Assembly (NCBI GenBank): GCA_963665665.1
Contig: OY762428.1
Coordinates: forward strand, 4,224,001 to 4,288,000
Reading direction: 5' to 3'
Source: Candidatus Kapaibacterium sp.
GTDB lineage: Bacteria; Bacteroidota; Ignavibacteria; Kapaibacteriales; UBA2268
DNA length: 64,000 bases
Shown: piece after piece, positions 5,152 to 29,601 of the stretch
Layout of the letters: the number at the start of each line of letters is the position of its first letter
Position numbering within the stretch: position 1 is the stretch's first letter
Program-made: the position numbers and the translations under genes
The notes under the pieces: model-generated
Told to the model about the DNA's origin: nothing
Databases searched by the model: none
The model's input: only the letters and a program-made list of their open reading frames with translations

Positions 5152-5155
5152 ATAG

Positions 5156-6016: not shown

Positions 6017-6071
6017 AATTCAAATCTGATTTTTGAATTAGAGATTTTTTAGAATAAAATTCGTATTTTAG

Positions 6072-6103
6072 AGCGCTTGCTAAAACAGCAGGCGCTTTTT
6101 TTT
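6072..6103 (+). terminator. Intrinsic terminator
   Basis: agcgcttgct-aaaac-agcaggcgct hairpin followed by a T run. Confidence 0.75.
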
Positions 6104-6126
6104 GTTTCAGCTGTAAGAAAGTGATT

Positions 6127-6645
6127 ATGGATGTATTATGGGCTCCGTGGCGATCAGAATATATTGAAACATTCAAAGATGAAGCCAAAAAGAAAAAAGA
6201 GGATTGTTTCTTTTGCGAAGCAATTGAAAGGCCCGAAGAAGATGTGAAAAGGTTTGTTGTTGCAAGAAGAGAACACACGATTGTAATATTGAACAAGTTT
6301 CCTTATAACAACGGGCATACTCTTGTAGCACCGCTCAGGCATATCGGGGAACAGGATGAACTCAGCGATGAAGAATATATTGAACTTATGCTGCTTCTAA
6401 GGCAAACCAAGAAGGTGCTTGAGGAAATATATCATCCTCACGGGTTCAATGTGGGTGCCAACCTGGGAAGAACAGCAGGAGCAGGAGTCCCCGGGCACAT
6501 GCATTATCATATCGTACCCCGCTGGAATGGTGACAGCAGTTTTATGACGGTTTTTGCAGGTATAAATGTTGTATCCGAGGCTATGCACAAAACAAGAGAT
6601 ATGATGGAGAAAATATTTACAGAAAAATATCCGGTTGTTGAATAA
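6127..6645 (+). CDS. HIT family nucleotide hydrolase (Ap4A hydrolase/phosphorylase-like)
   Basis: LWAPWR, CFFC, NKFPYNNGH and HMHYHIVPRW histidine triad. Confidence 0.9.
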   Translation: MDVLWAPWRSEYIETFKDEAKKKKEDCFFCEAIERPEEDVKRFVVARREHTIVILNKFPYNNGHTLVAPLRHIGEQDELSDEEYIELMLLLRQTKKVLEEIYHPHGFNVGANLGRTAGAGVPGHMHYHIVPRWNGDSSFMTVFAGINVVSEAMHKTRDMMEKIFTEKYPVVE

Positions 6646-7475
6646 TGGCAATTAAGCCCAAAAAATCACTGGGGCAGAACTTCCTGAAGGACAGGAATAT
6701 TATTTTAAAAATTGCGGCCCTTGCCAATCCGGATCTGCCTGTTATAGAGATTGGCCCCGGCACAGGTGCGCTAACCGAAGAATTACTAAAAAAATTTCCG
6801 GGCTTGAAAGCAATAGAAATTGATAGCAGGGCCATTGAAGTTCTAAAGGAAAAATTCCCTTACGGAGAATACCCCGATTTTGAAATTATTCATTCCGATA
6901 TTTTAAAAACAGATATTAGCGCTATATATAAAAAGGACTTCCAGGTGATGGGAAATATACCGTATTATATTTCCAGCCAGATATTCTTTCAATTATATGA
7001 TGCAACCGGTTATTTGAAACAGGCGGTTTTAATGATCCAAAAAGATCTTGCCAAAAGGCTGATAGCACCTGTAGGCAGAAAAGATTACGGCATTCTTACT
7101 ATTGCAATGGCTTTGAAAGGAAAGTGTACGATAGAATTTGATGTGTCCCCTCATTGCTTCTACCCTCAGCCGAAAGTAACTTCATCAGTTATAAAAATGG
7201 TTTTTAATCCTGTTGTCAACGATTCTGATTTTAAGTCGATTATGAGGATTGTTCGTATAGCTTTCAGCCAGAGAAGAAAAGTTCTCGGAAATTGCCTGAA
7301 ACCGATTATTAACGCGTTACCTGACGGTAAAGAGGAGTTTATTGGCAGATTGAATAAGGTTGGTATGGATGCAGAAAAAACTCTTAGGCAAAGAGCCGAA
7401 CAACTGACAATAGATGAGTATATTCTGCTTAACAAATGTTTAAACCAAAATATTATTGATAACAGTAGCAGGTGA
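6645..7475 (+). CDS. rsmA: 16S rRNA m6(2)A1518/1519 dimethyltransferase
   Basis: PKKSLGQNFL, IEIGPGTGALT, GNIPYYIS, FYPQPKVTS, FSQRRK motifs. Confidence 0.95.
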   Translation: MAIKPKKSLGQNFLKDRNIILKIAALANPDLPVIEIGPGTGALTEELLKKFPGLKAIEIDSRAIEVLKEKFPYGEYPDFEIIHSDILKTDISAIYKKDFQVMGNIPYYISSQIFFQLYDATGYLKQAVLMIQKDLAKRLIAPVGRKDYGILTIAMALKGKCTIEFDVSPHCFYPQPKVTSSVIKMVFNPVVNDSDFKSIMRIVRIAFSQRRKVLGNCLKPIINALPDGKEEFIGRLNKVGMDAEKTLRQRAEQLTIDEYILLNKCLNQNIIDNSSR

Positions 7476-8876: not shown

Positions 8877-11800
8877 TTATTTATAAATTTCCATTTTTCC
8901 ACGTATCATTTTGCAATTTTCGAAACCCAAATTGGTTTTCAGGTGGTAAATGTAAATACCGATAGGCAGCCCGGCAGGATTGAAAGAAACCGAATATTCT
9001 CCTTTGGGCCTGAACCCCTTGTCTATTGTCAGGACTTTTTCGCTGCGGACATTATAAAGAATCAGCTCAATTTCGGCATCTTCCCTAAGGATATATTCTA
9101 TTGTAGTTGTTTTGCTTGCCGGGTTGGGGAAATTTTGAAATAGTGTTACTGCAGAGCAGCTGTTGGCAGTATATCGTATAGGATTACCGCAGGCAAGTTC
9201 AAATTCTCCATTCTCGATAGTGAAAACAATAGTGCCAATATCAGGTTTTGGGGTGGTCAGCTCGATAGTGCTTATGTCCCTGAAAGAACGCAGAACCACA
9301 AAATCAAAAACAGCTGCATATCCGGAATCATCAGGAATCCTGCTTAATAGTATATCTTCAATAATCATTTCATCATCAATTATCGAGCCTGCAGGAGTTT
9401 CATTTATTGGCCGGAGAATACCGGCTGGCATTGTTAAGTCTGCGCTGATATATTTAAAATCAGAATATTCAAAATTTGTGGTATCTGATAATCTGATTTT
9501 TACCTGTACGCTGTCATCAGGATAGCCACAAAAATCTTCCAAAATGATTTTAGCAGATTTTACAGGTTCGATATTGGTGGTGAGAATGATATTTTCAATA
9601 TTTCCACACTGATCATAAATTTCAATTGAAGAAGTGAATATTCCCGGAGTTGCCGATTCGAAATTAACAGTGGCGGTGGATTTGTTTCCGGGTATGGTTT
9701 GTTCAGGGCTGATTTCAATGTAAAATCCGTCTTTTATCAAAGGCGTTTCCCAGCTGATGTTTCTTGTGCCGGTGTTAGTAATTTCAAATGTTGATGATGT
9801 CTGTGTGTTTATTTCTGCTATGCCTAAATCTACAGTATTGGTTGATACAAAATAAGATATATGTTCTGTTTTCGCTGTTAAAGTAATTAAATTTCTACTA
9901 TTATCAGCATTAACGGCATTAGAAAAGATTATTAGCTCAGCATTTCTCAATCCGGTTTTTTGAGGTTCAGGAACGAATCTGATCTCAATTTCCAATGTTG
10001 CTGAAGGTTCTATCAGTACATCATCAATTATATTAAGAAGTTCAAATTCCTCGTCATCATCACCGTTCAGCTTTAGCGAATCAATAAGAAGCCTGCTGCT
10101 GCCGGTATTGGTAATAACTATTGTTGTGTCCATAGAATAAGGAGGGCAAACTGCATCCGGTAAAACGATCTCATCAATTGATGTTAAAATTGATTCGTTT
10201 TGTTTTGTTTTCCCTGTAATAGTAATAATTTCCTGATTATTACAACTGTCCTTTAATTCAAAATGAACGTTCAGGTCATGCCCGGATTTTTTCCCGGAGT
10301 ATAAAAAATTGATATATGCGCTGTCATTTGGCTGAATATTTAATGGTATCTGGTGACTAATTATTAAATGTTCATCAGGTGATATTATATCTTCGAAAGT
10401 TACCGGCATAGTTCCTTTGTTATAAATAATCATTGAATCTCTGCTGCTGCTGCCGATGTCAATTGTTCCCAGGTCAATATGATTTTTTGAAACTTCAAAT
10501 TTATACATCTGGAAGGAGCCGCTAAGCAGTACCTGGGATGATTTGCTGACATCGCCTGTAAATGAAGACTCAATAATCAGTTTGGCTGTGAAATTTCCGG
10601 CATTGCCGGGTGCAAAACGAATTGCAATTTCTCCTGTAGTTCCGGCAGCTATATCAAATTCTTCAAAAGGTTCGGGATCAAGAATCTCGAAACTGCCGAA
10701 ATTATCATCAGTAATTGATATACTCTTAATTGTAACAGGTTCAGAACCAAGGTTTTTAAGAACAATTAATGAATCGTGAGGAGTTGAATTGCAGATTTGC
10801 GCCGGGTATTGTAATAGTTCCGGAACGTCCAGTTGATAATCAATCCCTTTACCTAAAAGGCGTACCCGGGCTGGCGATCCGTTCCCATCGAAATAGAAAT
10901 TTATCAGTCCGCTGACTTTTCCCGGATATTCAGGTTCAAAAATTATTTTGAATTCGGCGCTTTTCTTAGAACCAATATTGAAAATATCAGGTTTTGGTTC
11001 CATTCTGAATGGGGTGCCCCGGTAATTTATCAGTTCTGTTCCGGTAATTGTTACGGGAAAGCCTGTTTCGTTATAGATCAGGACTATAGTAGTATCTGCC
11101 TTAGTGCCAAGCGATACTTTACCAAAATCCACATCCTGATTAATTATACTTATAATCGGTGAAACAACCTGGGCTTCAAGTGTTTGGGGAAGCATTCCAT
11201 TCTGATGGTGAATTAAAATATCTGAAGATATTTTGCCAATATCTGTTCCGGCAGTAACCCGGAAAATAAGTGATTTAATTTCTCCGGGCTTCATGATAAG
11301 CGGAACAAAGCCTGAGACCAATTTGAAATTATCCGTATTGGAAATTGATATGGAATCAATCCTGATAGGAACCGATCCATTATTATAAATAAAGTTCCTG
11401 ACAGTGCTGTCCCTGAATGTGGATACAAGAATTTGTCCGAAATCAACATCTAAGCTTTTTAATTTAGGGCTGACAATTTGCCAGATATTATCAGATTCGT
11501 CCGAAAGTATGTCCGGTTCTTCAAGCGGGATATCATAAGGCGACCAAATTTCGATGTATGAATCCAGGCTTCCGCTTGCGAGTTTGGTACCGTTCCTGTT
11601 CCATCGAAGTGTTTTTACTTCTTCTGTATGCCCGGTGAATTCATAAATTTTTTCAAAATTAATACCATCGAAAATAATTACCGATTCATTTGATGTTCCA
11701 CATGCTATGTATGCTCCGTCGGGGCTCCAGCTTACCACAGGAACTTTATCGGCACCGGTTTCAAGTGTGTCTGCCGGAGAATAATTCCTGAGGTCATAAA

Positions 11801-13946
11801 TAATTATTTTTCCGGATCTGCCGGAAATTGCTGCATATTTGTCATCAGGGCTTGAGCTAACTGAATAAATTTCAAACTCTTGATTAATACTTGAAAATTC
11901 TTCGTCGAGGCCGGGAACTGAGAATACTTTAAATTTATTGTCCCAGCTTACGGTTAGTAATCGGTCGGAAGCAGTGCTCCAGGCAATTGAACTAAGGGCT
12001 GCATTGTGCGCAGAAACTGACTTTACCTGGTTAAAATTATCTGCATTGCGCAGAATTAGTTCCCCTCCGTAATCTCCGCCAGCCAAATATCTATTATCCG
12101 GACTGATTTCAATGTCAAGAATATTCGATTCATGTCCTGCATAATCTCTTTCATGAGAATATGTTTCGGCATTCCAGACACGGATCATTTCATTTCGGGT
12201 TGTAATTATTTTTTTTCCATCCCGAGACCATAGCACACTTGCCACCAAACCTTCGGAATTAGAAACAATGGTATCGATATTATTATTAATTAAATCCCAA
12301 ACAATGATCCAGCCGTCATTGGAACCACTGACAATTTTTCTGGAATCCGGCTTCCAGGATATGCCATAAACACTATTTTCATGTCCGCTTAAAATTGTAA
12401 CTTTGCTATCCTTGCTGTCGGTTTTTCTAATTCTCATCAGACCTTCATTTGTCGGCAAATCCGGAACTTTCCAGGAATATTCAAGTCCGATTGCACCTTC
12501 ATCAGCTTTAATCCAGTTTGCTCCGTCGTTCGTGCTGTATTCAATAATAACTTCGTTTTCAGGAAGAATACCTTCCCACTTGATTGTTGTATCAGAACCG
12601 GATACGAGTTTTTCACCTCCGTTTGGAAATACAACTTTAAGGGTGTCGGCAGGGGTAGTTCCCCTTATATTTGCGGCAATGTATAGAGTTTTTTCCAGGC
12701 AGGCATCGGTGTCGAATTCAATTCTACCAAAACCGAGAGTGTTGGTTGAAATCTGAAAAAAAATTTCAATTTCAGCTGAATCGCCAGGTGGAATATTTAT
12801 TGTTTCCTGGTCAAGAATTGGTATTGATATGTCCTGATTAGTACTTGTGTAAGAGTTAATGGAAATTGGCTCGCGGCCAGAAAATAGTTTTATTATTGTA
12901 TCAAGAATTATTCCCGGGTCCACAGCTCCGAAATTAATGGAAGTGGAGGAAGAATATTGTAGTTTCGATAAATATCTTTGATTGATTTCGTAATCAAAAC
13001 TACTAAAGAAATCTTCGCCGAGGTAATTAATCCGAAAAGATAAATTTCTATGTGTTTGGCAACCGTTTGATTCCCATAAAATTTTGTAAGGCGGAATACC
13101 GGAAACAGCGAAATATATTTTTTTGAAAGCGTCCTCCAAGCTGCCAGGGTCTGTGATATTATCATAAAAACTGCCCCCGGTTTTAAGTGCAAGATCAGAT
13201 AAAGTTTTGCCGGCAGGCCCGGCTAAGACTACCGGAAATACTTTTATTCCGTAGTTATCAGCCAGAATCACAATATCTGATATATCAGTTTCAACTATAC
13301 CATCGGTTATCAGAATGATAGATTTATCCCATTTTCCAGCTGCTGCTATATTGATAGCTCCGGCTGCCTGGTCGGAAAAAGCATTTTTAAAATTTGCATT
13401 TCCCGAAGTAGCAATATTTTGAAAAGCTGATATAATATCATCGGCATTATCCGTGAAGTCCTGGTTGATAAAGGCTTTTTCGTTGAAAGTGCACAAAGCT
13501 GTTTCATTATAGTTTGGGTCGGACAGAATTTTCCACTTAAGCATTGCACTTCTGACTATATCCATTTTGAAACCGTTCATGGATGATGATATATCGACTG
13601 AAAAAACAACGGAAGTTGCCCTTTGATCGTAGGGGCCGGGTTCTATAAGGCTGAATCCTAGAGGATCGGAATTCTGAAGAAGATCAATATCTGCTTTTTC
13701 AAGATCCTGAACAGATATATCATCATTAGCGGTAAAATAAAACTCGGAAGTAATATTCGGATAGTTTGATGTTTCTACTGAATTGAGCAGTACTTGTGCA
13801 TTAAGCGAATACTGAAATAAAAAAATCAATCCCGCGATAACGACATTTGAAGTTAAATAGTTTGCAAATAATATTTTTAACACGTTTCTATAATCAATAT
13901 CATATTTAACAAAAAAGCGAACATTAAATATAAAAATTAATATCAT
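8877..13946 (-). CDS. Large secreted protein: VWA, WD40 propeller, multiple ASH/choice-of-anchor D Ig domains, T9SS type A CTD
   Basis: MIDAS VDISSS and ITDG; about 7 GH...WD-type repeats; repeated DFG/NTG Ig domains; LFQNFPNP...GIYIY C-terminus. Exact start uncertain. Confidence 0.8.
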   Translation of the reverse strand: MILIFIFNVRFFVKYDIDYRNVLKILFANYLTSNVVIAGLIFLFQYSLNAQVLLNSVETSNYPNITSEFYFTANDDISVQDLEKADIDLLQNSDPLGFSLIEPGPYDQRATSVVFSVDISSSMNGFKMDIVRSAMLKWKILSDPNYNETALCTFNEKAFINQDFTDNADDIISAFQNIATSGNANFKNAFSDQAAGAINIAAAGKWDKSIILITDGIVETDISDIVILADNYGIKVFPVVLAGPAGKTLSDLALKTGGSFYDNITDPGSLEDAFKKIYFAVSGIPPYKILWESNGCQTHRNLSFRINYLGEDFFSSFDYEINQRYLSKLQYSSSTSINFGAVDPGIILDTIIKLFSGREPISINSYTSTNQDISIPILDQETINIPPGDSAEIEIFFQISTNTLGFGRIEFDTDACLEKTLYIAANIRGTTPADTLKVVFPNGGEKLVSGSDTTIKWEGILPENEVIIEYSTNDGANWIKADEGAIGLEYSWKVPDLPTNEGLMRIRKTDSKDSKVTILSGHENSVYGISWKPDSRKIVSGSNDGWIIVWDLINNNIDTIVSNSEGLVASVLWSRDGKKIITTRNEMIRVWNAETYSHERDYAGHESNILDIEISPDNRYLAGGDYGGELILRNADNFNQVKSVSAHNAALSSIAWSTASDRLLTVSWDNKFKVFSVPGLDEEFSSINQEFEIYSVSSSPDDKYAAISGRSGKIIIYDLRNYSPADTLETGADKVPVVSWSPDGAYIACGTSNESVIIFDGINFEKIYEFTGHTEEVKTLRWNRNGTKLASGSLDSYIEIWSPYDIPLEEPDILSDESDNIWQIVSPKLKSLDVDFGQILVSTFRDSTVRNFIYNNGSVPIRIDSISISNTDNFKLVSGFVPLIMKPGEIKSLIFRVTAGTDIGKISSDILIHHQNGMLPQTLEAQVVSPIISIINQDVDFGKVSLGTKADTTIVLIYNETGFPVTITGTELINYRGTPFRMEPKPDIFNIGSKKSAEFKIIFEPEYPGKVSGLINFYFDGNGSPARVRLLGKGIDYQLDVPELLQYPAQICNSTPHDSLIVLKNLGSEPVTIKSISITDDNFGSFEILDPEPFEEFDIAAGTTGEIAIRFAPGNAGNFTAKLIIESSFTGDVSKSSQVLLSGSFQMYKFEVSKNHIDLGTIDIGSSSRDSMIIYNKGTMPVTFEDIISPDEHLIISHQIPLNIQPNDSAYINFLYSGKKSGHDLNVHFELKDSCNNQEIITITGKTKQNESILTSIDEIVLPDAVCPPYSMDTTIVITNTGSSRLLIDSLKLNGDDDEEFELLNIIDDVLIEPSATLEIEIRFVPEPQKTGLRNAELIIFSNAVNADNSRNLITLTAKTEHISYFVSTNTVDLGIAEINTQTSSTFEITNTGTRNISWETPLIKDGFYIEISPEQTIPGNKSTATVNFESATPGIFTSSIEIYDQCGNIENIILTTNIEPVKSAKIILEDFCGYPDDSVQVKIRLSDTTNFEYSDFKYISADLTMPAGILRPINETPAGSIIDDEMIIEDILLSRIPDDSGYAAVFDFVVLRSFRDISTIELTTPKPDIGTIVFTIENGEFELACGNPIRYTANSCSAVTLFQNFPNPASKTTTIEYILREDAEIELILYNVRSEKVLTIDKGFRPKGEYSVSFNPAGLPIGIYIYHLKTNLGFENCKMIRGKMEIYK

Positions 13947-16067: not shown

Positions 16068-16424
16068 ATGATGCAATTAACGTGGTATAAGTGTGTGGGC
16101 GATGTATGGTGCAACCTATTTAGATTAGATCTTGATCATCGCTATCTTGATGATATTGAGGGATGTTTCATACTTTGGAGCGGTATAGATCCAAAAGTGC
16201 CTCTGGCGGTTGGATACGGTGATATCAGATCAGAACTTAAGGCTTTGAAGAGTGATATAGCTATTCGTGCTTTCGAAGGCAGGGGATTATTTGTTACCTG
16301 GGCAGAATTACCGGAAAAAAAGAGGGGAGCTGTAATATCATTTCTTATTAGCAAGTTAAAACCAAAGATTGCTGCAAAAGGCGGGGCTATTGATAAAAAA
16401 ATTGAAGTTAATCTTCCGTTTTAA
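16068..16424 (+). CDS. Small conserved-looking protein, possibly a degenerate GIY-YIG fold
   Basis: GGAG before ATG; W-x-K-C-x-G-D-V-W-C N-terminus; GCFILW...LAVGYG spacing resembles GIY...YIG; ends IEVNLPF. Confidence 0.55.
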   Translation: MMQLTWYKCVGDVWCNLFRLDLDHRYLDDIEGCFILWSGIDPKVPLAVGYGDIRSELKALKSDIAIRAFEGRGLFVTWAELPEKKRGAVISFLISKLKPKIAAKGGAIDKKIEVNLPF

Positions 16425-17410
16425 AGCGGCCATTCTTCCATTAAAAACGAGATACGGAAACAAAGTTTGTGTTGTTTCCATATCTCGTCTTTTATTACGC
16501 TTGTTAACGGATAGGAGTACATCATAGCGAAATTAAGCCCAAATCCGTCTGCATCCATCATAAATCCAAGTTCCAGATCGAGATATAACCTGTGTGAATT
16601 TAATGTGCTTAGTTTCTTTTCATGGAACAGGCTGAGAGTATCTCTTCCATTATCATACCTGATCTTATCTTTTGGGTAACCAATTTGCATATATTGATTT
16701 GATTCACTTGTTAATATATGATCGTAAGACAAACCGCCATAGAGATAATAAATCGAAAAACTATATGTATCTGCCGATTTCAAAAAACCGCCATACCATG
16801 GAATTAGTAGTCCTCCTCGAAGTGTTATTTTCATTTCGTCAAGGGTTAAAATTCCGGCTTCTTTCATTTTTATTTTTTCACCCTTTGCATTTATAAAATG
16901 CTTTACTTTTGTTCTTGTGAAAAGAAGACCCTTGGAAAATTCCCAATTTGCTTCTGCCCGAACAAAGCTGTTAATGAAGGCCAGTGAATGAATACCACCA
17001 ATACCAAAATTGATTAAACTCGATGCCGGGCCGTTGTCCTCTTCTTCATCTCTTTTGTTTTTTTCCATAATATTCATCTGGTCAGCACTCATTGTTCTTT
17101 TTGAAGAAAACGGGTATAATGTAGGAACAAAAGATGAAGACCTTATATTGTCGGCTTTATCAATTACAGAACCAAAATTCCAATTAAATGTGTAGGATCG
17201 AAAATTATCGAATATTCCGGGAAAATAACCACTTGATATAAAAATATTTTCCATGTAATCTTCTTCGAAATCTTTGTGCAGTGTAGTGTCCTGCAGTATT
17301 TTTGCCAGGTCGTTAAAAGTGTATGTACTGTCAGATTTATCCTCGTTTTGAGCCAATGCTGATTGGTATAGAAACACAATAGCAAATATAATAATGAGAT
17401 ATTTCATCAT
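16421..17410 (-). CDS. Outer-membrane beta-barrel protein
   Basis: Signal peptide and beta-strand pattern ending CFRISFLMEEWPL; overlaps the upstream stop by 4 nt. Confidence 0.6.
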   Translation of the reverse strand: MMKYLIIIFAIVFLYQSALAQNEDKSDSTYTFNDLAKILQDTTLHKDFEEDYMENIFISSGYFPGIFDNFRSYTFNWNFGSVIDKADNIRSSSFVPTLYPFSSKRTMSADQMNIMEKNKRDEEEDNGPASSLINFGIGGIHSLAFINSFVRAEANWEFSKGLLFTRTKVKHFINAKGEKIKMKEAGILTLDEMKITLRGGLLIPWYGGFLKSADTYSFSIYYLYGGLSYDHILTSESNQYMQIGYPKDKIRYDNGRDTLSLFHEKKLSTLNSHRLYLDLELGFMMDADGFGLNFAMMYSYPLTSVIKDEIWKQHKLCFRISFLMEEWPL

Positions 17411-18174
17411 TTAGCCACCATGAATTTCTTGTAAGCACTGCCTGTGTTTGCTTCAATAATTATATAATACATACCTGCCGCCATTTCTTCGGGAATATCA
17501 TAAGAATATCTTTGGGTTCCTTTTCTAACATCCTTAATATTTTCTACCAGCCTGGCTTTGCCTTCAGTATTATAAATAAAAACCTTCATGTCGCTGTTTT
17601 TGTCTATGAAAAAATCAAAATACAGGGTTTCTCCGGCATTAACCGGATTGGGGAAAATATTATAAACATTTGGAAAACGTACATAATTATCTATTGGCGA
17701 TATATTGAATGTTGTTAAAGTTGCTAATTTGTCATTTTGTAATGAATCATTAATAATAATATTTCTGAATAATATATTAGTAATAGTATCCGAGCCGGCA
17801 AGGCATTCACCGTTTAGTAATATTTGAACATTTTCATTTTGATTGTTTATCTTCAGATTAAGCTCAAACTTGTACAAAGAATCATTAACGCCGGGAGAGT
17901 TTTGATATTCAACCCGTGAAATTGAAGAACTTATTATACTACAATTGGAGTATTCTGTGAAGTATTCCGGAAGAAATATTGTAGGATTCTTTAATAGTAA
18001 TTCCCCGCTAATGATCAGATAATCTGACCCGATATCAGCAAATTCTATTCTAAGGTTTGTGTATTCGCCTTTTATTCCGCTTGTGTCATTTAGAAAATAA
18101 TCAAAAGCCAAAGTTGATATTTGACTGGTAAAAAAAAATATTATAAAAACAATACTATTTCTTAATAATAACAA
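17407..18174 (-). CDS. T9SS type A sorting domain-containing protein
   Basis: Signal peptide; IFPNP...AGMYYI...KKFMVAK C-terminus. Confidence 0.8.
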   Translation of the reverse strand: MLLLRNSIVFIIFFFTSQISTLAFDYFLNDTSGIKGEYTNLRIEFADIGSDYLIISGELLLKNPTIFLPEYFTEYSNCSIISSSISRVEYQNSPGVNDSLYKFELNLKINNQNENVQILLNGECLAGSDTITNILFRNIIINDSLQNDKLATLTTFNISPIDNYVRFPNVYNIFPNPVNAGETLYFDFFIDKNSDMKVFIYNTEGKARLVENIKDVRKGTQRYSYDIPEEMAAGMYYIIIEANTGSAYKKFMVAK

Positions 18175-19723
18175 ATTCCGTTCTCCTGTTCAGTTTTCTG
18201 TTTTCCTCGTTTGTATTCGGAACGAGCGGAGAGTTCTCTCCGAGTCCCTCAATTTCAATCCTGCCTTTGTCAATTCCTGACTGAACAAGATACTTTTTAA
18301 CCGAAAAAGCCCTTCTTTCGGAAAGTTCCATATTATAGTCTTCGGATCCGATATCATCAGTATGCCCCCTGACGAGAATTTCTATACCCTGGTATTTTTT
18401 CATTGATGAAGCTACTTCTTCAAGCAGGGGAATAGATTCTTTATTGATTTTATCCGAATTGTATTCAAATTGTATATTTAGCATTTTCATCGTCCCGACA
18501 GGGTCATGTGTTGAAATCAGAGTTTCATCGTACCAACCCCATTTTCTGAGGCTTTCAAACCCGCTCCCTGGAATGTTCAATCCAACGCTCACATCATGGT
18601 AGTCAGCACAATCGGGTGGGGTATAAGTTATAAGGTAATGGTTGTTCAGGCTGATATAAATGCTGGCAAATACATAAGCAAATTCTTTACTGCTGATCAG
18701 GTAATAGAAATTACCTCCTGTTGTTTCGGCAATATCAAGAAGAATTTCCGAATCTCCGAAACCATAAGCTATCGTGTATATTGTAATATTCTTTTCGCGG
18801 CACATTAATTGAATAGAATCCAGTTTGTCTTTCGAAGCTTCATCAAAACCATCGCTAAATAGTATCATAATGCGTTTTTTGTTACTGTCGGCTTTGGCGA
18901 GTTCCGTAATACCGGTTTTAACAGCGCCGAAGATGTTCGTTCCTGCAGTTTCCATACCCCTGAGCCCGTCTTCCCTGATTCTTTTGAAATCATTTTTCGA
19001 GTCAGTCAATGGAATTTCTACCTGGGATTGAGATGCGAATTTGATAACGCTTACCATATCGCCGGGTTTTATTGCCGGGAGTATCTTATTTAACGCTTGC
19101 TGGAGCTTTATCGCTTTGATATCACCCATTGATCCTGAATGATCAAGTACAAATGCCAATGCCTGAGGGCCGGCATCAACGGATCTGATTTCTTTTACCT
19201 CGTAATCACTAATATCGTGAATCCGTCCGTTACAGGAATCTGTGACTGAAAACCAGTATTTTTTATAGCTGTCAGTTCCTTTGTAATACGGAGGAGCTAA
19301 ATCCCGGATAACATTATCTTCGAGGTCGCCAACATGAGCAATAATACTAATCTTATGGGGATATTTACTTGAATTGACAGGCAGTAAGTTCAGATTATAG
19401 AAGCTTATGGAACTGTCCGATAATATTTTTTGAAAGGAAACGGAGTTAAGGGAATCTGCCGGGATGTTATATCTCTTCATCAAAATTTTTGAACGATAAG
19501 AACTGTCGTTTTTAAATTTGGCAGTCATTTTTTGTATATTTGTTTCTGACACCTGGCTGTTAATGAAAACCGGCCTGTGCTGCCTGATATTATTAAGAGA
19601 GTCCGGGAACATTATTTCAAGCTGGCTAACGAATTGGTGGGGGCAGGCACTGAGGATTAATGCTGCCGTGATAACGGATGCTGTTAAAATAATCCTGTTA
19701 TATGTTTTATTCCATCCCTCCAT
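18155..19723 (-). CDS. Lipoprotein with VWA and OmpA-like peptidoglycan-binding domains
   Basis: Lipobox LSAC; LDHSGSM MIDAS, FSDG; GHTDDIG...NMELSERRA...NRRTEF. Confidence 0.88.
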   Translation of the reverse strand: MEGWNKTYNRIILTASVITAALILSACPHQFVSQLEIMFPDSLNNIRQHRPVFINSQVSETNIQKMTAKFKNDSSYRSKILMKRYNIPADSLNSVSFQKILSDSSISFYNLNLLPVNSSKYPHKISIIAHVGDLEDNVIRDLAPPYYKGTDSYKKYWFSVTDSCNGRIHDISDYEVKEIRSVDAGPQALAFVLDHSGSMGDIKAIKLQQALNKILPAIKPGDMVSVIKFASQSQVEIPLTDSKNDFKRIREDGLRGMETAGTNIFGAVKTGITELAKADSNKKRIMILFSDGFDEASKDKLDSIQLMCREKNITIYTIAYGFGDSEILLDIAETTGGNFYYLISSKEFAYVFASIYISLNNHYLITYTPPDCADYHDVSVGLNIPGSGFESLRKWGWYDETLISTHDPVGTMKMLNIQFEYNSDKINKESIPLLEEVASSMKKYQGIEILVRGHTDDIGSEDYNMELSERRAFSVKKYLVQSGIDKGRIEIEGLGENSPLVPNTNEENRKLNRRTEFVIIKK

Positions 19724-19807: not shown

Positions 19808-20092
19808 TTAAACTTTGTTTCTTTTTGTTTTCCATTTTCTTAACTGACGTACCATTTTATCGCCTGCTTCATTCAAACTTTTCTGGAAGCTCTCGGACCC
19901 TTCCCTGGCTACCAGAGTTGAACCCTGAACTCTTACTGTGAATTCAACCATTTTGTCCTGATCTTTCCAGAATACTACATCTGTACTAATGATCTGATCT
20001 AAGAACTTGTCGAAACTTTCAGCTACGTCTATGGCCTTTTGATGAAGCTCGGGATGAGACTTTAGATGTCTGAATGTTACGTTTGTTTTCAT
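19808..20092 (-). CDS. hpf: Ribosome hibernation promoting factor / RaiA (short form)
   Basis: MKTNVTFRH...DKMVRQLRKWK signature; GAGG ribosome-binding site. Confidence 0.85.
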   Translation of the reverse strand: MKTNVTFRHLKSHPELHQKAIDVAESFDKFLDQIISTDVVFWKDQDKMVEFTVRVQGSTLVAREGSESFQKSLNEAGDKMVRQLRKWKTKRNKV

Positions 20093-20216
20093 ATATACCT
20101 CTCAAAAAAATTCAAGACAAAAATTAGTTAATTTAAAATATCGTGATAAAGTCTCTTTATCCTCCTATCTATTTTCACGGAATAAGGAAAAATTTGTTTT
20201 AAAAAAATTGAATTCT

Positions 20217-21029
20217 TTAATTAAAATTTAGATAAAATCCCAGATTCAATGATAAACTGCCCGGTATAAGCTCTATGTTATCATCAATATAATCAGGGGC
20301 TTGGTATAACTGCTTTCCGATACCCGAAAAAATCTCAGGGTAGCGAAAAATATGTGTATAACTGCTGGTGAAAATTACACCCCAGTATATGTTGCCTGCA
20401 AGTGCGTGGTCGAAACCAAGTTCAAGGCCGCTGCTGATTCTCAGCACGGGTAGTAAGGTCTCTTTATCATAAAGACGGCCTCCTGTTCTTAATAAATCCG
20501 GATTATTGGCAGGGATGTTTTCCTGCCAGGAAATTTTATTGTACGACAGGCCGGCTCCTAACCCAACAAAAGTTCTGAACTGGCCGTTGGTAGGAATATA
20601 TTCTAAATTGGTTATAAAAGGAATTGATTTGATTTCAAAGTTTTCATTTATATCTGAAGAAATTCCGGGAGCAATATCTGAAACGAAGTATTCTTCAAAA
20701 TTTGCCTGGAAATAATTTATTGAGAAATTTAGCTTGAATTTTTTCGAAATGTTGAATCCCAAAGCAGCATTGATATCCGGTTGAACACGGAAATAATTTA
20801 CGTTTCCTCCGCTAATTTCCCTGTATTTTTCGAAAAATTCCGAGGAATTCAATATGAAGTGCGCCCCACTGGATAATGACAGGGTTATGTCATGTTTTTT
20901 ATAGAATGAAAAAGGTTGTGTAGTTCTATCTGCTGCGGTTTTCTCCGGTGTAAATAATATCAGAAAAAAAATCAGGGTTACGAAAAAATTTCGTGACAGT
21001 TCAGGATAATATACCTCTGATTTTACCAT
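20217..21029 (-). CDS. Outer-membrane beta-barrel protein
   Basis: GGAGG RBS; signal peptide; RTFVGLGAG strand; C-terminal LGFYLNFN. Confidence 0.7.
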   Translation of the reverse strand: MVKSEVYYPELSRNFFVTLIFFLILFTPEKTAADRTTQPFSFYKKHDITLSLSSGAHFILNSSEFFEKYREISGGNVNYFRVQPDINAALGFNISKKFKLNFSINYFQANFEEYFVSDIAPGISSDINENFEIKSIPFITNLEYIPTNGQFRTFVGLGAGLSYNKISWQENIPANNPDLLRTGGRLYDKETLLPVLRISSGLELGFDHALAGNIYWGVIFTSSYTHIFRYPEIFSGIGKQLYQAPDYIDDNIELIPGSLSLNLGFYLNFN

Positions 21030-21167
21030 AAACCTCCGACGTGGGGTTGATCAATTATCAATTTCATTACTTATGTCAAATATAAAAGTATTTATGAGAA
21101 AGTCAAGTATTATCTGTTTTAGATAGTAATAATATTTTTTTTCTGATAACCGTTGGTTAAAAAAAAT

Positions 21168-21198
21168 TGTGACTTTTTGGAAACCAAATCACACCTAC
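21168..21198 (+). promoter_or_regulatory. Possible ECF-type autoregulatory promoter
   Basis: TGTGAC-N18-CACCTA about 70-95 nt upstream of the ECF gene; pattern resemblance only. Confidence 0.25.
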
Positions 21199-21263
21199 AA
21201 GAAAGTGCATTCGGGAAAAAAATATTTATTACTTTTGAATATTATAAACAAAAAAGAAATTAA

Positions 21264-21797
21264 ATGAGTGATAAAGATAAACAGGAGAGATTCCTGCAGC
21301 TATTAAAAACTAACATGGAAAAGCTGGAAAGATACACGCTGGCATTATGCAGGAACAGGCAGGATGCCAAAGACCTTGCAGCCGATACTATCCTGACTGC
21401 TTACGAAAATTTTGAAAAACTAAGGGACGAGAAAGCTTTTCTGAGTTATATTTTCACCATCGCGTCAAGAATTTATTCATCTGGAAGGAAAAAGCTCCGA
21501 CCGATGGTTGAACTTGAAGATGCGGGACAACTCTATTGCAACAGGATAAGCCCTGAAACAGCTACTGATATTCAATTACTGTACGAAGCCCTGTGGAAAT
21601 TGTCTGAAGAAAGAAGAGAAGCCATAATTCTGTCGGAAATATTCGGATTTAAACATAAAGAGATTGCTGAAATACAAAATACCGGAATATCTTCTGTAAA
21701 AATGAGGATACTTCGGGGGAAAAGAGAACTAAGGAAAATTCTCGGCATTGATAAAAAACAGGATATAATAAAATCAGGTGCTGCAGCCCTGATATAA
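21264..21797 (+). CDS. ECF RNA polymerase sigma-70 factor
   Basis: Region 2 (DAKDLAADT...FLSYIFTIA) and region 4 (REAIIL...KHKEIAEI...SVKMRILRGK). Confidence 0.92.
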   Translation: MSDKDKQERFLQLLKTNMEKLERYTLALCRNRQDAKDLAADTILTAYENFEKLRDEKAFLSYIFTIASRIYSSGRKKLRPMVELEDAGQLYCNRISPETATDIQLLYEALWKLSEERREAIILSEIFGFKHKEIAEIQNTGISSVKMRILRGKRELRKILGIDKKQDIIKSGAAALI

Positions 21798-21848
21798 TGA
21801 TAATATGAGATCTCGTTGAAATTTTTTTAACTTTATTAATGAATAACA

Positions 21849-23837
21849 ATGAAAAAGAAACTAAATAAAATTTTTGATAAAACAAGAAACGTTCGTAACC
21901 CAGAACCTTTTTTCGATGATAATCAGCTCCGGAGCCTTGTGGAAAAAAGTAATGGCGCTTCTAATATTAATACCCGGAATCTTCCGGGAAGCCAGACATT
22001 TTTTAAAACTTTCATAAGGAAATTTGCAATGACAGCAGGAATAACGTCAATGATTATGATCATGTCTTTTGTGGCATGGATGTACACTGGAACTATGGAA
22101 TTAAACAACGGTTTGAATGAACTTTCCGCAGGCCTCAGCGAACTTTCGGCAGGTTTGAACTCGATTCTTGCGGGCAGCTCTGATGCTGAAGACTCCTCGG
22201 AGGGCAAAGTAGATAAAGAAAAACCGGATGGGGCGGAAAAAGAAACAATAATAACAGCCAACAATCAAGTTGTAGAGAAAGTAAATATTAAAACAGGTGA
22301 TCTTTTTGAAGTGATGATGAAAAATCAGGATGCAGTATGGAAAAAACTGACAATAGACCTTAAAACCAATAAAGTTTATGGTGAGTTGATGCATGAAGGC
22401 AAACCGAAACAATACAATGAACAGAAAGATGATGAAACTGATGTAAAATCTGAAAAATTCTCCGAGGCAAAGAATGAATATGAGAAGCGGAGAATGGATA
22501 CCAAGGTTATGGAGCTGCTTTCTCCGGAAGACCTGAGAAAAGTTGCAGATCAGATACTGGATGAATTCCCTGACGGGAACAGGGTAGGGTATAGTTTGTG
22601 GAGAATGAGAAGATACGCGCATGAAAAAAGAACATCCGAGTTTGACAGATGTTACAACAATGCTGTCAAACAGGCAAAAGGTATGGATGACTTTCAGAAT
22701 GTAAAAGCAAAGATAGGCTTGTTTAAATATATTATGACATTGATTGCAAGGGATATACAGGGATTAAAAGTTATTGAACTGAATCAGGAAGAACTTGCAA
22801 AATTGAATATCAGCCCTATTGTTCCCTTCAACGATAGCAGACTAAACAACATGGAATTCAGAAATAATAACCTTGGCTATAAGTTAATGACCGAAACAAC
22901 GGAGCTCGATGGTGATCAGAAGGAAAATCCTGCAAAATTTAACTATCCGTCCGGTTTATCTGAAATTCTATACAAGAACATTGTTGAACTATTCATGAGT
23001 AAACCAAGAAGCAATCAGATTGAGCTGGAATTAAAAAAATACACCGGCTGGGCAATGGATGAATTCGATCCGCTGGCGCCTGTAGCTATCACCTCTAATC
23101 TGTATATTGGCGATTACATGCGCCTTATGGTTGAATATGTTGTAAAGGGAGCTCCAAATGCAAGAGATATTGAAAATTTCAACCCCGATAGTTTTTCAAA
23201 AATGATAGAATCAAGAAACAGTATTATTAAAGATGACATAAGCGCTGACTATAATAAACTTATACCGGTTCTTTTAAAAATTGGCGATCAGAAGTCGGAA
23301 GCCTTCCCACCCGAAACTATGGAAGATGAAATTACATCCGAAGGAGTTTATATCAGGAAAAATTATGACTTTACCTATGCTGAATATCGTGTATGGTACT
23401 ATCCCAACGAGGCATTCCTGAAAGCTATTCCTAAGAAGTATTCTGATGTTATACGTAAAGAACTGGATGTGATTGCAAAGGTTGCCGAGGGTGAAATGAA
23501 TCACGAAGATGCCTGCGAAGCAGTAAAAGGAGACGGTTCTTTCCTCGGTGTATGCAGAATGACTTCAGCCGGGATCAGCAATGTGAAAATCTATCCCAAT
23601 CCGATGCAAAACAGAATACTTAACGTTGAATTCAGGCTTGAAAACCCTGCAAAACTTACTTTTGCACTACATAATCTTGCTGGCCATTTTATCGCCGACT
23701 TGAAATCCGGAGAGCATCAGGGAGGCCTTCAGAAAATAACACTTGAGCTTGACAAAACAGTCCAACCGGGTATCTACCTGTTTTCAATTACTTCAGACAA
23801 GGGTGACAATGTGGTGCATAAACTGATAGTACAATAA
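21849..23837 (+). CDS. Single-pass membrane protein (putative anti-sigma) with xxxLxxG heptads and C-terminal T9SS type A domain
   Basis: About 58-aa hydrophilic N-terminus, TM at about aa 59-79, LNNG-LNELSAG-LSELSAG-LNSILAG, C-terminal IYPNP...PGIYL...KLIVQ. Confidence 0.75.
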   Translation: MKKKLNKIFDKTRNVRNPEPFFDDNQLRSLVEKSNGASNINTRNLPGSQTFFKTFIRKFAMTAGITSMIMIMSFVAWMYTGTMELNNGLNELSAGLSELSAGLNSILAGSSDAEDSSEGKVDKEKPDGAEKETIITANNQVVEKVNIKTGDLFEVMMKNQDAVWKKLTIDLKTNKVYGELMHEGKPKQYNEQKDDETDVKSEKFSEAKNEYEKRRMDTKVMELLSPEDLRKVADQILDEFPDGNRVGYSLWRMRRYAHEKRTSEFDRCYNNAVKQAKGMDDFQNVKAKIGLFKYIMTLIARDIQGLKVIELNQEELAKLNISPIVPFNDSRLNNMEFRNNNLGYKLMTETTELDGDQKENPAKFNYPSGLSEILYKNIVELFMSKPRSNQIELELKKYTGWAMDEFDPLAPVAITSNLYIGDYMRLMVEYVVKGAPNARDIENFNPDSFSKMIESRNSIIKDDISADYNKLIPVLLKIGDQKSEAFPPETMEDEITSEGVYIRKNYDFTYAEYRVWYYPNEAFLKAIPKKYSDVIRKELDVIAKVAEGEMNHEDACEAVKGDGSFLGVCRMTSAGISNVKIYPNPMQNRILNVEFRLENPAKLTFALHNLAGHFIADLKSGEHQGGLQKITLELDKTVQPGIYLFSITSDKGDNVVHKLIVQ

Positions 23838-23855
23838 AAACTTAAAGATATTTTC

Positions 23856-23892
23856 AAAAAGAGTTCGTTTTGTAAGCGGGCTCTTTTTTTTT
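23856..23892 (+). terminator. Intrinsic terminator of the ECF operon
   Basis: aagagttcgttt-tgt-aagcgggctctt hairpin with a long T run. Confidence 0.75.
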
Positions 23893-24321
23893 GGTTCACA
23901 TCCAAAACCAGGGACTAAACAAAAAGTTTCATTATTCTTAATAAGAAGAGATCACTGTCGGCAACACATCTATTGTTAGTACCGGATAAAGCCAACAAAT
24001 GTCACTCCCCGACAAGCCGAGGGTAGGCTGAACAAAGTGAAGAGTCTATTCTTCATGATTTTATCATAGATACAAGTGTATTCTTTAGTCTCGATCCTGC
24101 CCTGCCGGGGAATTTATATGCATGCCCCGAGCTTTTTTACCGGTTAATTAGTAGAAATGATCCCCTGAATGTAATTGAATTATACTGAACCCGATCATCT
24201 TCCTGACGAATTTTTACTTATTTCCTGTCCGTCCATGTAATTTCCTGATATTATTGGTGTTAACACCTCTGGTGCATCCTCCGGTAACGATTTTTCGCGC
24301 CGGAAACCCCTTGTTTTGTGG

Positions 24322-24552
24322 TATTATAGCGTTGGTTCGTGCCATCATAGCGTTGGTTCGTGCCATCATAGCGTTGGTTCGTGCCATCATAGCGTTGGTG
24401 CGTGTCATCATAGCGTTGGTGCGTGTCATCATAGCCTTGGCTCGTGCCATCATAGCCTTGGTGCGTGTTATCATAGCGTTGGTTCGTGCCATCATAGCCT
24501 TGGTACGTGTCATCTTAGCCTTGGCTCGTGCCATCTTAACCTTGGTGCGTGC
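24322..24552. repeat. Tandem array of 11 x 21-bp units (consensus CATCATAGCSTTGGTNCGTGY)
   Basis: Units start at 24322, 24343, 24364, 24385, 24406, 24427, 24448, 24469, 24490, 24511 and 24532; no spacers. Confidence 0.97.
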
Positions 24553-25050
24553 TTTCAAAAACATTTTTTGAGATAATATTTTACTCAGAAAACAAAGAAT
24601 TTCACTCTTTTGATATGGAATTTCATTCATTCTGTCCGGTCGATCCCTTTGATCAATGGATGTTTTGATCCGTAAATGTCTCTGCTTGTTTTTGCCCGAT
24701 AAATATTTAGTTCAAAAATATAGGAGTTTGCTATGCCCGGCTATGTTGATCATTCATCAGCACATAATTTCCAAGGGATGTTGGATGAAATTCCTGAGGT
24801 GCGATATTGTAACAGCTCTTCTAGGAGTATCTATATTGCAATTTAGCATTTAATCCCTAACTCTTGATACTGACCCTTTTTTTTTCGCTGCAATGATCAT
24901 CCAGATTATGGTATTTGTAATCATACCAAATTAAAATAATCTTTAAAATTTTGTGCTTTTTATCTTAGCATATATGCTTTATATTGCATTATAAGAAAAT
25001 TTATCAGGCATTAATGCTACAATATTTTATTGTTTTAAATATTTATAATT

Positions 25051-26016
25051 ATGGAAATAACCGAAAAGAAACTGAAATTTGAAGAAACTGACCTCCTGCC
25101 AATTCTTGGTTCGAATGATTTATTCCTAAACATGATAGAAAACCGTTTCAATGCGGCCATAATTGTTCGCGGAGAAAAAATTGTAATAAAAGGTAACAGT
25201 TTTGAAGTAAAGAAAATCGAGGAAGTATTCAAAGAGCTGATATATATCTTAACTAAAAACGGATCGCTTGAAGAAAGGGATGTTAGTACTGTTCTCGATC
25301 TTGTTGAAGCAAACCGTACAGGAGATGTGGTTGCTATCTCCGATCCTGATTCGGTTATTTATCATGGTTATCGTGACTTGATCAGGACACGTACCCCAAG
25401 GCAGCTTGAGTATTGCCAAAAGGTCAGGAACAACGACCTGGTTTTTTCTATTGGGCCTGCGGGAACAGGTAAAACCTTCCTTGCTGTAGCAATGGCGCTA
25501 GCCGCGATGAGACGGAATGAGGTAAGTAAGATAATTCTTTCCAGGCCTGCTGTCGAGGCCGGGGAGTCTCTTGGTTTTCTGCCTGGCGACCTGAATGAAA
25601 AGCTTGACCCATATATTCGTCCCTTGACTGATGCGCTATTTTATATGCTAAATCCCGATAAACTTAAAAGCCTGATGGAAAAACAAATAATCGAGATAAC
25701 GCCCCTGGCCTACATGCGCGGGCGCACATTGAGCAATGCTTTTATTATTCTGGATGAGGCTCAGAATGCTACCGTAACCCAGATGAAGATGTTCCTTACA
25801 AGGCTTGGAGCTAATTCCAGGGCTATTGTTACAGGAGATATTACACAGATAGACCTGAAAGAGAAAACAAATTCCGGACTGGTTGATGCAAAAAATGTTC
25901 TTAGCAAAATTGACGGCATAGAATTTGTTTACTTTTCGAATAAGGATGTTGTAAGGCATAAACTCGTGGCAAAAATAATCAAAGCCTACGAGAAAAGGGA
26001 AAAGAAAGAAAAATAA
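25051..26016 (+). CDS. phoH: PhoH family ATPase (YbeZ-like)
   Basis: GPAGTGKT, RPAVEAGESLGFLPGD, LAYMRGRTL, ILDEAQN and GDITQID motifs. Confidence 0.95.
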   Translation: MEITEKKLKFEETDLLPILGSNDLFLNMIENRFNAAIIVRGEKIVIKGNSFEVKKIEEVFKELIYILTKNGSLEERDVSTVLDLVEANRTGDVVAISDPDSVIYHGYRDLIRTRTPRQLEYCQKVRNNDLVFSIGPAGTGKTFLAVAMALAAMRRNEVSKIILSRPAVEAGESLGFLPGDLNEKLDPYIRPLTDALFYMLNPDKLKSLMEKQIIEITPLAYMRGRTLSNAFIILDEAQNATVTQMKMFLTRLGANSRAIVTGDITQIDLKEKTNSGLVDAKNVLSKIDGIEFVYFSNKDVVRHKLVAKIIKAYEKREKKEK

Positions 26017-28650: not shown

Positions 28651-29601
28651 ATGCCAAAAAAAATTAAAGTACTACTTGTTGACGACCAGGCAATAATTTT
28701 AGATATTCTGGAAAAAGGACTAAAACAGGATCCTGCGATAGAGATAGTTGGGAAGGCAACTGACGGATATCTTGCCCTGAATATGGTAAGGCGGGTGCGG
28801 CCTGACGTAATTCTGCTTGATATGGAAATGCCCAGGATGAATGGTATCCAGTTCCTGCATAACCTAATGCCTGTTAACCCGATACCTACCATTGTTCTTT
28901 CAGCATTGACTGCTAAGAATTCAAAAATAACAAATGATGCTTTTGAAGCAGGAGCCGTTGACTTTGAGCCTAAGCCGAGCGGTGCAAGAGGGCTAAATGA
29001 TATGCTTGAGCAGCTTTGGACTAAGATTAAAATGGCTGCTACCCAGGATGTTAATCACTTAAAGAAGAAAAAGAAAAGTTATACTCTTCCCAGTTCTCAT
29101 CTGGACAGGGCTGCAAAAACAGATAAAGTAATACTTGGCATGGGAGCCCTGGATGTGTCCAATAATCCAGGACAACATCTGAAAATTTATGCTCTTGGTT
29201 CCTGTATCGGGTTGGCACTTTTTTGTCAGACAGGCGGTATTGTAGGATTGGCACATGTAGTACTACCTCAGTCAACAACCGATATCGAGAAATCCAAAAA
29301 AATGCCCGGCTATTTTGCTGATACAGCAGTTCCGGAATTAATCAGCAAAATGCGTGATCTCGGATGTAATACGAAGATATTTGCAAAAATTGCAGGTGGT
29401 GCCAAAACAAACGTTGATATTGGGGATTTTTTCGGGGTTGGCCAAAGAAATGCTGTTTCGGTAAAAGCAAGCCTGCTAAAAAACGGTGTGAAAATTCTTT
29501 CTCAGGATGTTGGTGATACTTACTCGCGTACAATGACTGTAACAGCCGGAAAAGCAAAAGTTGAACTGTACTATCCTGATAAGGGGTCATGGATGATATA
29601 G
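28651..29601 (+). CDS. Fusion of CheB-type receiver domain and CheD-family glutamine deamidase
   Basis: REC: LLVDD, LDMEMPRMNG, LSALT, PKP. CheD: ALGSC, LAHVVLP, YFADTAV, KIAGGA, GQRN, DVG..SR. Confidence 0.88.
   Translation: MPKKIKVLLVDDQAIILDILEKGLKQDPAIEIVGKATDGYLALNMVRRVRPDVILLDMEMPRMNGIQFLHNLMPVNPIPTIVLSALTAKNSKITNDAFEAGAVDFEPKPSGARGLNDMLEQLWTKIKMAATQDVNHLKKKKKSYTLPSSHLDRAAKTDKVILGMGALDVSNNPGQHLKIYALGSCIGLALFCQTGGIVGLAHVVLPQSTTDIEKSKKMPGYFADTAVPELISKMRDLGCNTKIFAKIAGGAKTNVDIGDFFGVGQRNAVSVKASLLKNGVKILSQDVGDTYSRTMTVTAGKAKVELYYPDKGSWMI

Follow-up and report, generated by a model that had tools for sequence, protein, structure and literature searches.

The window analysed here, 64,000 nucleotides of Candidatus Kapaibacterium sp. 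(contig OY762428.1, positions 4,224,001 to 4,288,000 of the forward strand), contains a two-gene unit in which a gene for an extracytoplasmic function (ECF) sigma factor is followed by a gene for a 662-amino-acid (aa) single-pass membrane protein ending in a type IX secretion system (T9SS) C-terminal sorting domain (CTD) of type A. We favor, at somewhat better than even chances, the reading that the two form an ECF sigma / membrane anti-sigma module, whose membrane partner would combine a two-helix anti-sigma domain, a periplasmic domain and a T9SS tag and would free the sigma factor upon detachment of the ectodomain. Judged from its sequence and from structure prediction, what would be new is that an ECF/anti-sigma pair combines a short sigma-binding domain of an undescribed sort with a secretion tag. 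ECF sigma / anti-sigma pairs are a main bacterial route for envelope sensing, and in T9SS bacteria the matching of expression to secretion is, to our knowledge, largely open, with PorXY-SigP/PorA as the one studied case. Gene control and protein export may be connected by this module in an undescribed way, an idea that standard genetics could address in any family host that can be cultured.

The initial annotation of this stretch had described an ECF gene, a 51-nt gap, a 662-aa open reading frame (ORF) and a single terminator, and all of them are found where it placed them. A 177-aa ORF at 21264..21797 (+) is followed, after 51 nt, by the 662-aa ORF at 21849..23837 (+), and a hairpin with a T run resembling an intrinsic terminator (23856..23888, +) closes the two-gene unit. 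The 177-aa protein carries Sigma70_r2 at aa 14-69 (E 5.4e-8) and Sigma70_r4_2 at aa 104-156 (E 4.4e-13) in Pfam and, at 51.7 bits, exceeds the cut-off (42.9) of TIGR02937, the ECF superfamily model; having sigma-70 regions 2 and 4 only and passing the superfamily model, it is a group 4 (ECF) sigma-70 factor. Among the 25 best matches listed, no NCBIfam subgroup equivalog (SigW, SigM, RpoE or GFO_1088/PG0214, for example) reached its cut-off, the best subgroup model being PRK12517 with 81.1 bits against 197, and sigma_PG0214 scoring 46.8 against 130; the protein is therefore an ECF factor of no named subgroup. Its relatives number 28 at E ≤ 1e-10, and the taxon label found among them is that of one Candidatus Kapabacteria metagenome-assembled genome (MAG).

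The stop-to-stop frame of the partner opens at 21843, two codons ahead of Met1, so that Met1 is the first possible start. A Kyte-Doolittle scan (19-aa window) gave a single hydrophobic segment, peaking at aa 59-79 (22023..22085, +; maximum 1.68), which we read as an N-in signal anchor. In the AlphaFold2 (AF2) model, two short helices (residues 2-14 and 24-34) and an NPEPFF loop make up residues 2-35 (21852..21953, +), the predicted sigma-binding clamp; a transmembrane (TM) helix at 50-80 comes next, then a low-confidence helix at 89-107, disorder up to about residue 140, and folded domains after that. In an alignment of 71 full-length family members, 87-100% of the rows have a hydrophobic residue at positions 5, 8, 9, 12, 22, 27, 30 and 31. 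Ten of the 12 printed homologues are full length and repeat the order of short helix, N-P-x-P-hydrophobic loop, second helix, Lys/Arg residues and hydrophobic helix; the two exceptions are P0009, an N-terminally truncated fragment of 449 aa that starts within the ectodomain, and P0014, whose motif has diverged and whose helix is preceded by a long insert.

Such conservation indicates that the N-terminal segment is translated and under selection, and we therefore place the start at Met1 and not at Met61. A true start at Met61 was among the findings that the initial annotation had named as able to overturn its reading; with the N-terminus conserved across the 71 aligned members, it is rejected as the sole start. 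Met68 was ruled out as the only start together with it, the upstream 58 aa being conserved in the family. In its public copy (P0001, 595 aa), the protein is indeed annotated from Met68, within the TM helix, which we regard as the gene caller's choice, contradicted by the conserved N-terminus. Five further representatives are annotated with a start in or at the helix. Mis-starting inside the TM helix may be systematic across the family, and starts placed there hide the anti-sigma domain from annotation.

The same layout recurs far beyond this locus. A HMMER search of 1.84 billion cluster representatives returned 529 relatives with E ≤ 0.001, of which 219 reach E ≤ 1e-10 and 16 reach E ≤ 1e-30, the best non-self match aligning over partner residues 1-662. 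In 106 of the 149 best non-self representatives, a segment of 20-116 aa opens the protein and leads through Lys/Arg residues into one TM helix, with residue 52 as the median start of the 19-aa hydrophobic window; 5 have a hydrophobic stretch at the very N-terminus, and 38 (92-721 aa in length, 30 of them below 400 aa) have none. Recurrence in 106 of 149 sequences is more than chance. In these 106 members the 15 aa that precede the helix contain on average 3.57 Lys and Arg residues, versus 1.26 after it, with 90 having more before and 12 equal numbers on both sides, and we read this bias as the positive-inside signature of an N-in anchor. The N-in single-pass anti-sigma layout with a hydrophilic N-terminus of about 58 residues, as first annotated, is thus borne out by the hydropathy scan and the charge bias, and we conclude from these sequences that the 662-aa protein inserts N-in, C-out through one helix.

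Besides the CTD, no Pfam domain recurs in the 71 full-length members, in which single chance-level matches to SAM_1 (E 0.002) and FlgD_ig (E 0.009) were seen. The core module is duplicated in some relatives. Word-indexed protein searches returned the protein itself and at most one further match at the level of the CTD, and tblastn against plasmids gave no match.

A complex prediction of the sigma factor with residues 1-60 of the partner had been proposed as a check in the initial annotation, and its outcome favors binding. The sigma factor was given a 29-row alignment and the partner segment a 71-row alignment, with 3 runs and 3 controls. The pair reached an ipSAE of 0.69 in all 3 runs, against 0.02 for the best control. 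Of 157 solved complexes, 116 reach the score mark used, as do 2 of 215 mismatched pairs, counts that are rough here, our own alignments having been used. The partner segment had a pLDDT (AF2's per-residue confidence) of at least 61, and at least 72% of the contacts were common to the runs. The predicted interface comprises residues 4-35 of the partner and, on the sigma side, residues 3-48 in region 2 and 95-160 in region 4, with F21 and F22 of the NPEPFF loop in the lowest-error contacts. Group conservation is somewhat higher at the interface positions (0.63) than in the rest of residues 1-48 (0.50). As the partner falls into no known family, it is less likely that the score merely echoes a solved complex, although solved structures do include many sigma/anti-sigma complexes in general. 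The prediction thus speaks for an interaction between the sigma factor and residues 1-60.

The pairing itself, whose conservation elsewhere the initial annotation had made a test of its reading, recurs in one further locus, a MAG contig (L001). There, a 189-aa ECF sigma factor (3203..3772) and a 794-aa family member (3765..6149) form a homologous pair with an 8-nt overlap. The two sigma factors are 47% identical (E 6e-56), the partners only about 26-28%, and the genes flanking the pair in L001 are unrelated to those flanking it in the window. Sigma factor and partner are thus adjacent and co-oriented in both loci examined, with a 51-nt gap in one and an 8-nt overlap in the other. Directly downstream of the pair in L001 lies a 153-aa ORF (6387..6848, -) that, by its appearance, may be an IS200/REP-type transposase.

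The N-terminal segment differs from the known classes of anti-sigma domain to varying degrees. Models of class I anti-sigma factors (RseA, RsiW, ChrR, zf-HC2 / RskA type) gave no Pfam or NCBIfam match at E ≤ 1, and the AF2 model has two helices only ahead of the TM helix, not the three-helix bundle plus fourth helix (about 80-90 aa) of class I. The available text of PMC6101532 describes the class II clamp of CnrY and NepR as a very short two-helix cytoplasmic element touching both sigma domains, followed in CnrY by a single TM helix. The partner resembles these class II proteins in having two predicted helices that would contact sigma regions 2 and 4; unlike in CnrY/NepR, the clamp geometry here is predicted only, and no sequence similarity to them or to any other known anti-sigma family was detected. 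A further difference lies outside the membrane, where CnrY has a short extracytoplasmic part and the 662-aa protein has one of about 580 aa with a T9SS tag. In anti-sigma-I factors of the RsgI type, found in cellulolytic clostridia, an anti-sigma domain at the N-terminus and a single TM helix precede an outward C-terminus of secreted-type modules. Among the weak Atlas look-alikes of the N-terminus is a cluster with RsgI_M in 71% of its members (score 0.80, to be taken as a lead only); the partner has no Pfam sequence match to this type, and RsgI hosts are monoderm, without an outer membrane to be crossed, and RsgI is without a T9SS tag.

Beyond the TM helix, residues 80-140 (22086..22268, +) form a low-confidence helix and an acidic disordered linker, with a pLDDT below 50 over residues 81-90 and 102-143. 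A weak match to the xxxLxxG heptad model TIGR03057 covers aa 84-107 (22098..22169) at 17.8 bits, below the cut-off of 18.6, and low-complexity linkers replace the heptad region in the printed homologues. The ectodomain proper, residues 141-575 (22269..23573, +), is modelled by AF2 as a small beta unit, a five-helix unit (202-300) and an alpha/beta core (308-560), with a pLDDT of 76.3 over residues 200-575. The core ends in a two-Cys element, C556 (23514..23516, +) and C569 (23553..23555, +), conserved in at least 90% of 150 sequences, as are W516, L527, P528 and E538. The conserved Cys pair suggests a disulfide, in keeping with an oxidising, extracytoplasmic (periplasmic or external) location. 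No family in Pfam besides the CTD gave a meaningful score on the 662-aa protein, even at E ≤ 1. The ectodomain model of residues 200-575 had no PDB fold match at E ≤ 0.001; a fold search of the full model against the PDB gave partial matches only (TMq ≤ 0.12), the attributable ones being Ig-like or CTD-sized domains; a profile search of the PDB returned CTD-level chains only, and all Atlas look-alikes scored below 0.9.

The C-terminus is the part with a clear family assignment. Residues 581-662 (23589..23834, +) pass both PF18962 (34.4 bits against a cut-off of 27) and TIGR04183 (36.6 against 23), which, with its presence in 70 of the 71 full-length members, confirms the canonical T9SS type A CTD of the initial annotation. 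The motifs YPNP, GIY and KLIVQ are legible in the translation, and conservation of P583, N584, P585, G612, G626, G641 and Y643 reaches 90% or more in the 150 sequences. The pLDDT is 91-98 over blocks covering residues 571-660 and 87 for the last two residues. From this pattern we take the CTD to be kept under selection. Three more CTD-bearing ORFs lie in the window, at 1111..5151 (+), 8877..13946 (-) and 17407..18174 (-), and with three such ORFs in 64 kb T9SS tags are evidently in wide use in the host, which suggests the presence of a T9SS. They encode a 1346-aa IgGFc-binding/Ig-like protein, a 1689-aa WD40 plus Ig-like protein and a 255-aa protein, respectively.

In the module that we propose, the first approximately 35 residues of the partner would clamp the sigma factor between its regions 2 and 4 and hold it at the membrane. 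The periplasmic part would consist of a flexible linker, a family-specific Cys-pair domain and the type A T9SS sorting domain, and the sigma factor would be freed once this part is detached from its anchor. Detachment might occur by site-1 cleavage in or near the linker, in the signal-peptidase style of RsiV and RsiP, or by self-cleavage, and the remaining stub would then be cleared by a site-2 protease of the RseP type. The CTD would send the detached ectodomain to the T9SS, and engagement or export by the T9SS might itself expose the stub; sigma activity would then report on type IX secretion or be coordinated with it. Sigma release may thus be coupled to T9SS export, which we infer from this scheme.

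Three known systems bear on this scheme. The available descriptions of RsiV/SigV and RsiP/SigP of Bacillus concern N-in single-pass anti-sigma factors whose ectodomain is cut beside the TM helix before a site-2 protease frees the sigma factor, and the site-1 cleavage of RsiV and RsiP by signal peptidase indicates that a cut beside the TM helix can be the regulated step; these systems differ in their monoderm hosts, in their response to lysozyme or beta-lactams and in having no T9SS tag. With FlgM and sigma-28, export of an inhibitor via a secretion machine licenses a sigma factor. FlgM is soluble, and the type III apparatus of the flagellum carries it out of the cytoplasm whole. Cargo of the T9SS is periplasmic only, and in the 662-aa protein, unlike FlgM, the sigma-binding part would lie N-terminal to an N-in anchor and stay inside, the ectodomain being at most exportable; export of the FlgM type therefore does not apply. 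The likeness to FlgM drawn in the initial annotation accordingly survives as the concept of an export-licensed sigma factor and fails where it would have the whole inhibitor leave the cytoplasm. A link between a CTD protein and an ECF factor is described in Porphyromonas gingivalis, where PorA informs the sigma factor SigP about the T9SS through PorXY (PMC7712824, as far as its available text extends). According to the same portion of that paper, PorA has a 27-residue cleaved signal peptide, is located at the cell surface, acts via a two-component system and is reported only in Porphyromonas, and T9SS cargo normally requires a cleaved Sec signal (PMC7712824). Unlike the 662-aa protein, PorA is not encoded as a membrane partner of the sigma factor. 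The 662-aa protein has no apparent cleavable Sec signal at its N-terminus, its only hydrophobic segment beginning at aa 59, after the conserved hydrophilic N-terminus.

Within the literature found, no ECF group of this design is described, in agreement with the initial annotation, and neither is an anti-sigma factor with a T9SS tail, although supplements and subscription papers may hold more. In the accessible part of the ECF reclassification paper (PMC7826278), type IX secretion occurs in one reference only, and the accessible part of its supplement does not contain the term. The family would supply a very short sigma-binding domain not described before and a large periplasmic domain not yet characterised, and within the literature found it would be the first case of a secretion-system sorting tag in an anti-sigma factor.

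Several points weigh against the module as proposed. We know of no precedent for T9SS cargo tethered to the inner membrane. The binding of the sigma factor rests on a model confidence score, and the ectodomain yields no functional clue from the fold and Atlas searches. The fold of the CTD is a common beta-sandwich and could have another role. No T9SS core gene was present among the window ORFs scanned, nor was a site-1 or site-2 protease gene among the window ORFs, and no cleavage site was identified. The sample for the pairing is two loci, L001 being the one confirmed among 186 candidate stretches in a scan with a 5-sequence alignment. Finally, the conserved Met61 suggests a second product that the model does not need.

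A stronger form of the proposal makes the module a T9SS secretion checkpoint, which we regard as possible, if doubtful. In this form, capture of the CTD by the T9SS would pull on or remove the ectodomain, the stub would be exposed in a Notch-like manner, triggered by force or export, intramembrane cleavage would release the sigma factor, and sigma-dependent transcription would directly report T9SS activity; the module, whose full layout is seen in 106 of the 149 best representative clusters, would be widespread, and Met61 might add a secreted isoform from the same gene.

It is unlikely, in our view, that the 662-aa protein is instead a conventional membrane anti-sigma factor whose C-terminal beta-sandwich is a periplasmic sensor or structural domain, with no handling by the T9SS and with release by envelope-stress proteolysis. 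The layout and the predicted sigma binding hold under this explanation too, which also has on its side the cleaved Sec signal normally required of T9SS cargo and the full-model fold search, in which the C-terminal part was paired with generic Ig-like domains. Yet that domain passes curated T9SS-specific models, and its terminal position and sorting motifs are kept in 70 of 71 members from very divergent lineages, which is hard to explain if sorting is irrelevant.

The conserved Met61 (22029..22031, +), at the cytoplasmic edge of the TM helix, is a possible internal start and raises the question of a second product. It is the most conserved of the first 100 aa, with Met in 59 of the 70 occupied rows of the 71-sequence alignment. 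A Met lies no more than 5 aa after the last Lys or Arg in 76 of the 106 members, and by eye in about a dozen more it is one or two residues off; the frequency of Met is 3% in the rest of the helix and 2% in the background. The Met1 form could be the anchored anti-sigma factor and the Met61 form a T9SS cargo with a Sec signal, the ratio of the two tying sigma activity to a secreted protein. Only a role as initiator demands exactly Met, and AAGGAA stands at -13..-8 of the Met61 ATG both in the window and in L001, although this concerns 2 DNA sequences only and may be a by-product of Lys and Arg codons, which are purine-rich anyway. The public copy and the five representatives annotated as starting in or at the helix would agree with such a form, unless these starts are gene-caller errors. 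Given a secreted isoform, the T9SS tag and the missing signal peptide would no longer be at odds; the short form, on the other hand, would be without a positively charged n-region, and about 17% of the members do not have the Met. Taken together, we consider two products improbable.

Least probable is that the 58-aa N-terminus is an extended signal-peptide region of a plain T9SS cargo with a functionally unrelated sigma neighbour: extended signal peptides exist in other secretion pathways and the publicly annotated start falls inside the helix, but the amphipathic two-helix pattern is conserved, its binding to the sigma factor is predicted while the controls score close to zero, and the pair recurs in L001 with its 8-nt overlap, the sigma factor being 47% identical across two loci whose flanking genes differ.

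Upstream of the pair, a 20-nt block at 21173..21192 (+), 91 nt upstream of the sigma start and with a GGAAAC core resembling a -35 element, is a candidate autoregulated ECF promoter. Of its 20 bases, 19 are identical to those at 3083..3102 in L001, 120 nt upstream of the homologous sigma gene; with two loci compared, it should be taken as a lead only. When the 64-kb window was scanned for regulon members, the motif occurred once at no more than 1 mismatch, upstream of the sigma gene, and one 2-mismatch copy was found at 16669, where it is intragenic. No paralogue of the sigma gene or of the 662-aa gene was found in the window or in L001, and no Rfam family in 20000..25100. The sigma gene and the 662-aa gene are probably a self-contained module with its own promoter.

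A 21-bp tandem repeat (24326..24552; 10.8 copies, 88% matches), which yields spurious repeat ORFs on both strands, lies within the 1.2 kb that separate the pair's terminator from a PhoH-like gene. A run of three minus-strand genes that overlap or abut (16421..19723, -) encodes an OmpA-VWA protein, a small T9SS-tailed protein and a 329-aa protein without a Pfam family, and may be a cell-surface operon. At 28651..29601 (+), a response-regulator receiver is fused to CheD, which points to chemotaxis signalling in a low-GC (37.5%) organism that uses T9SS tags.

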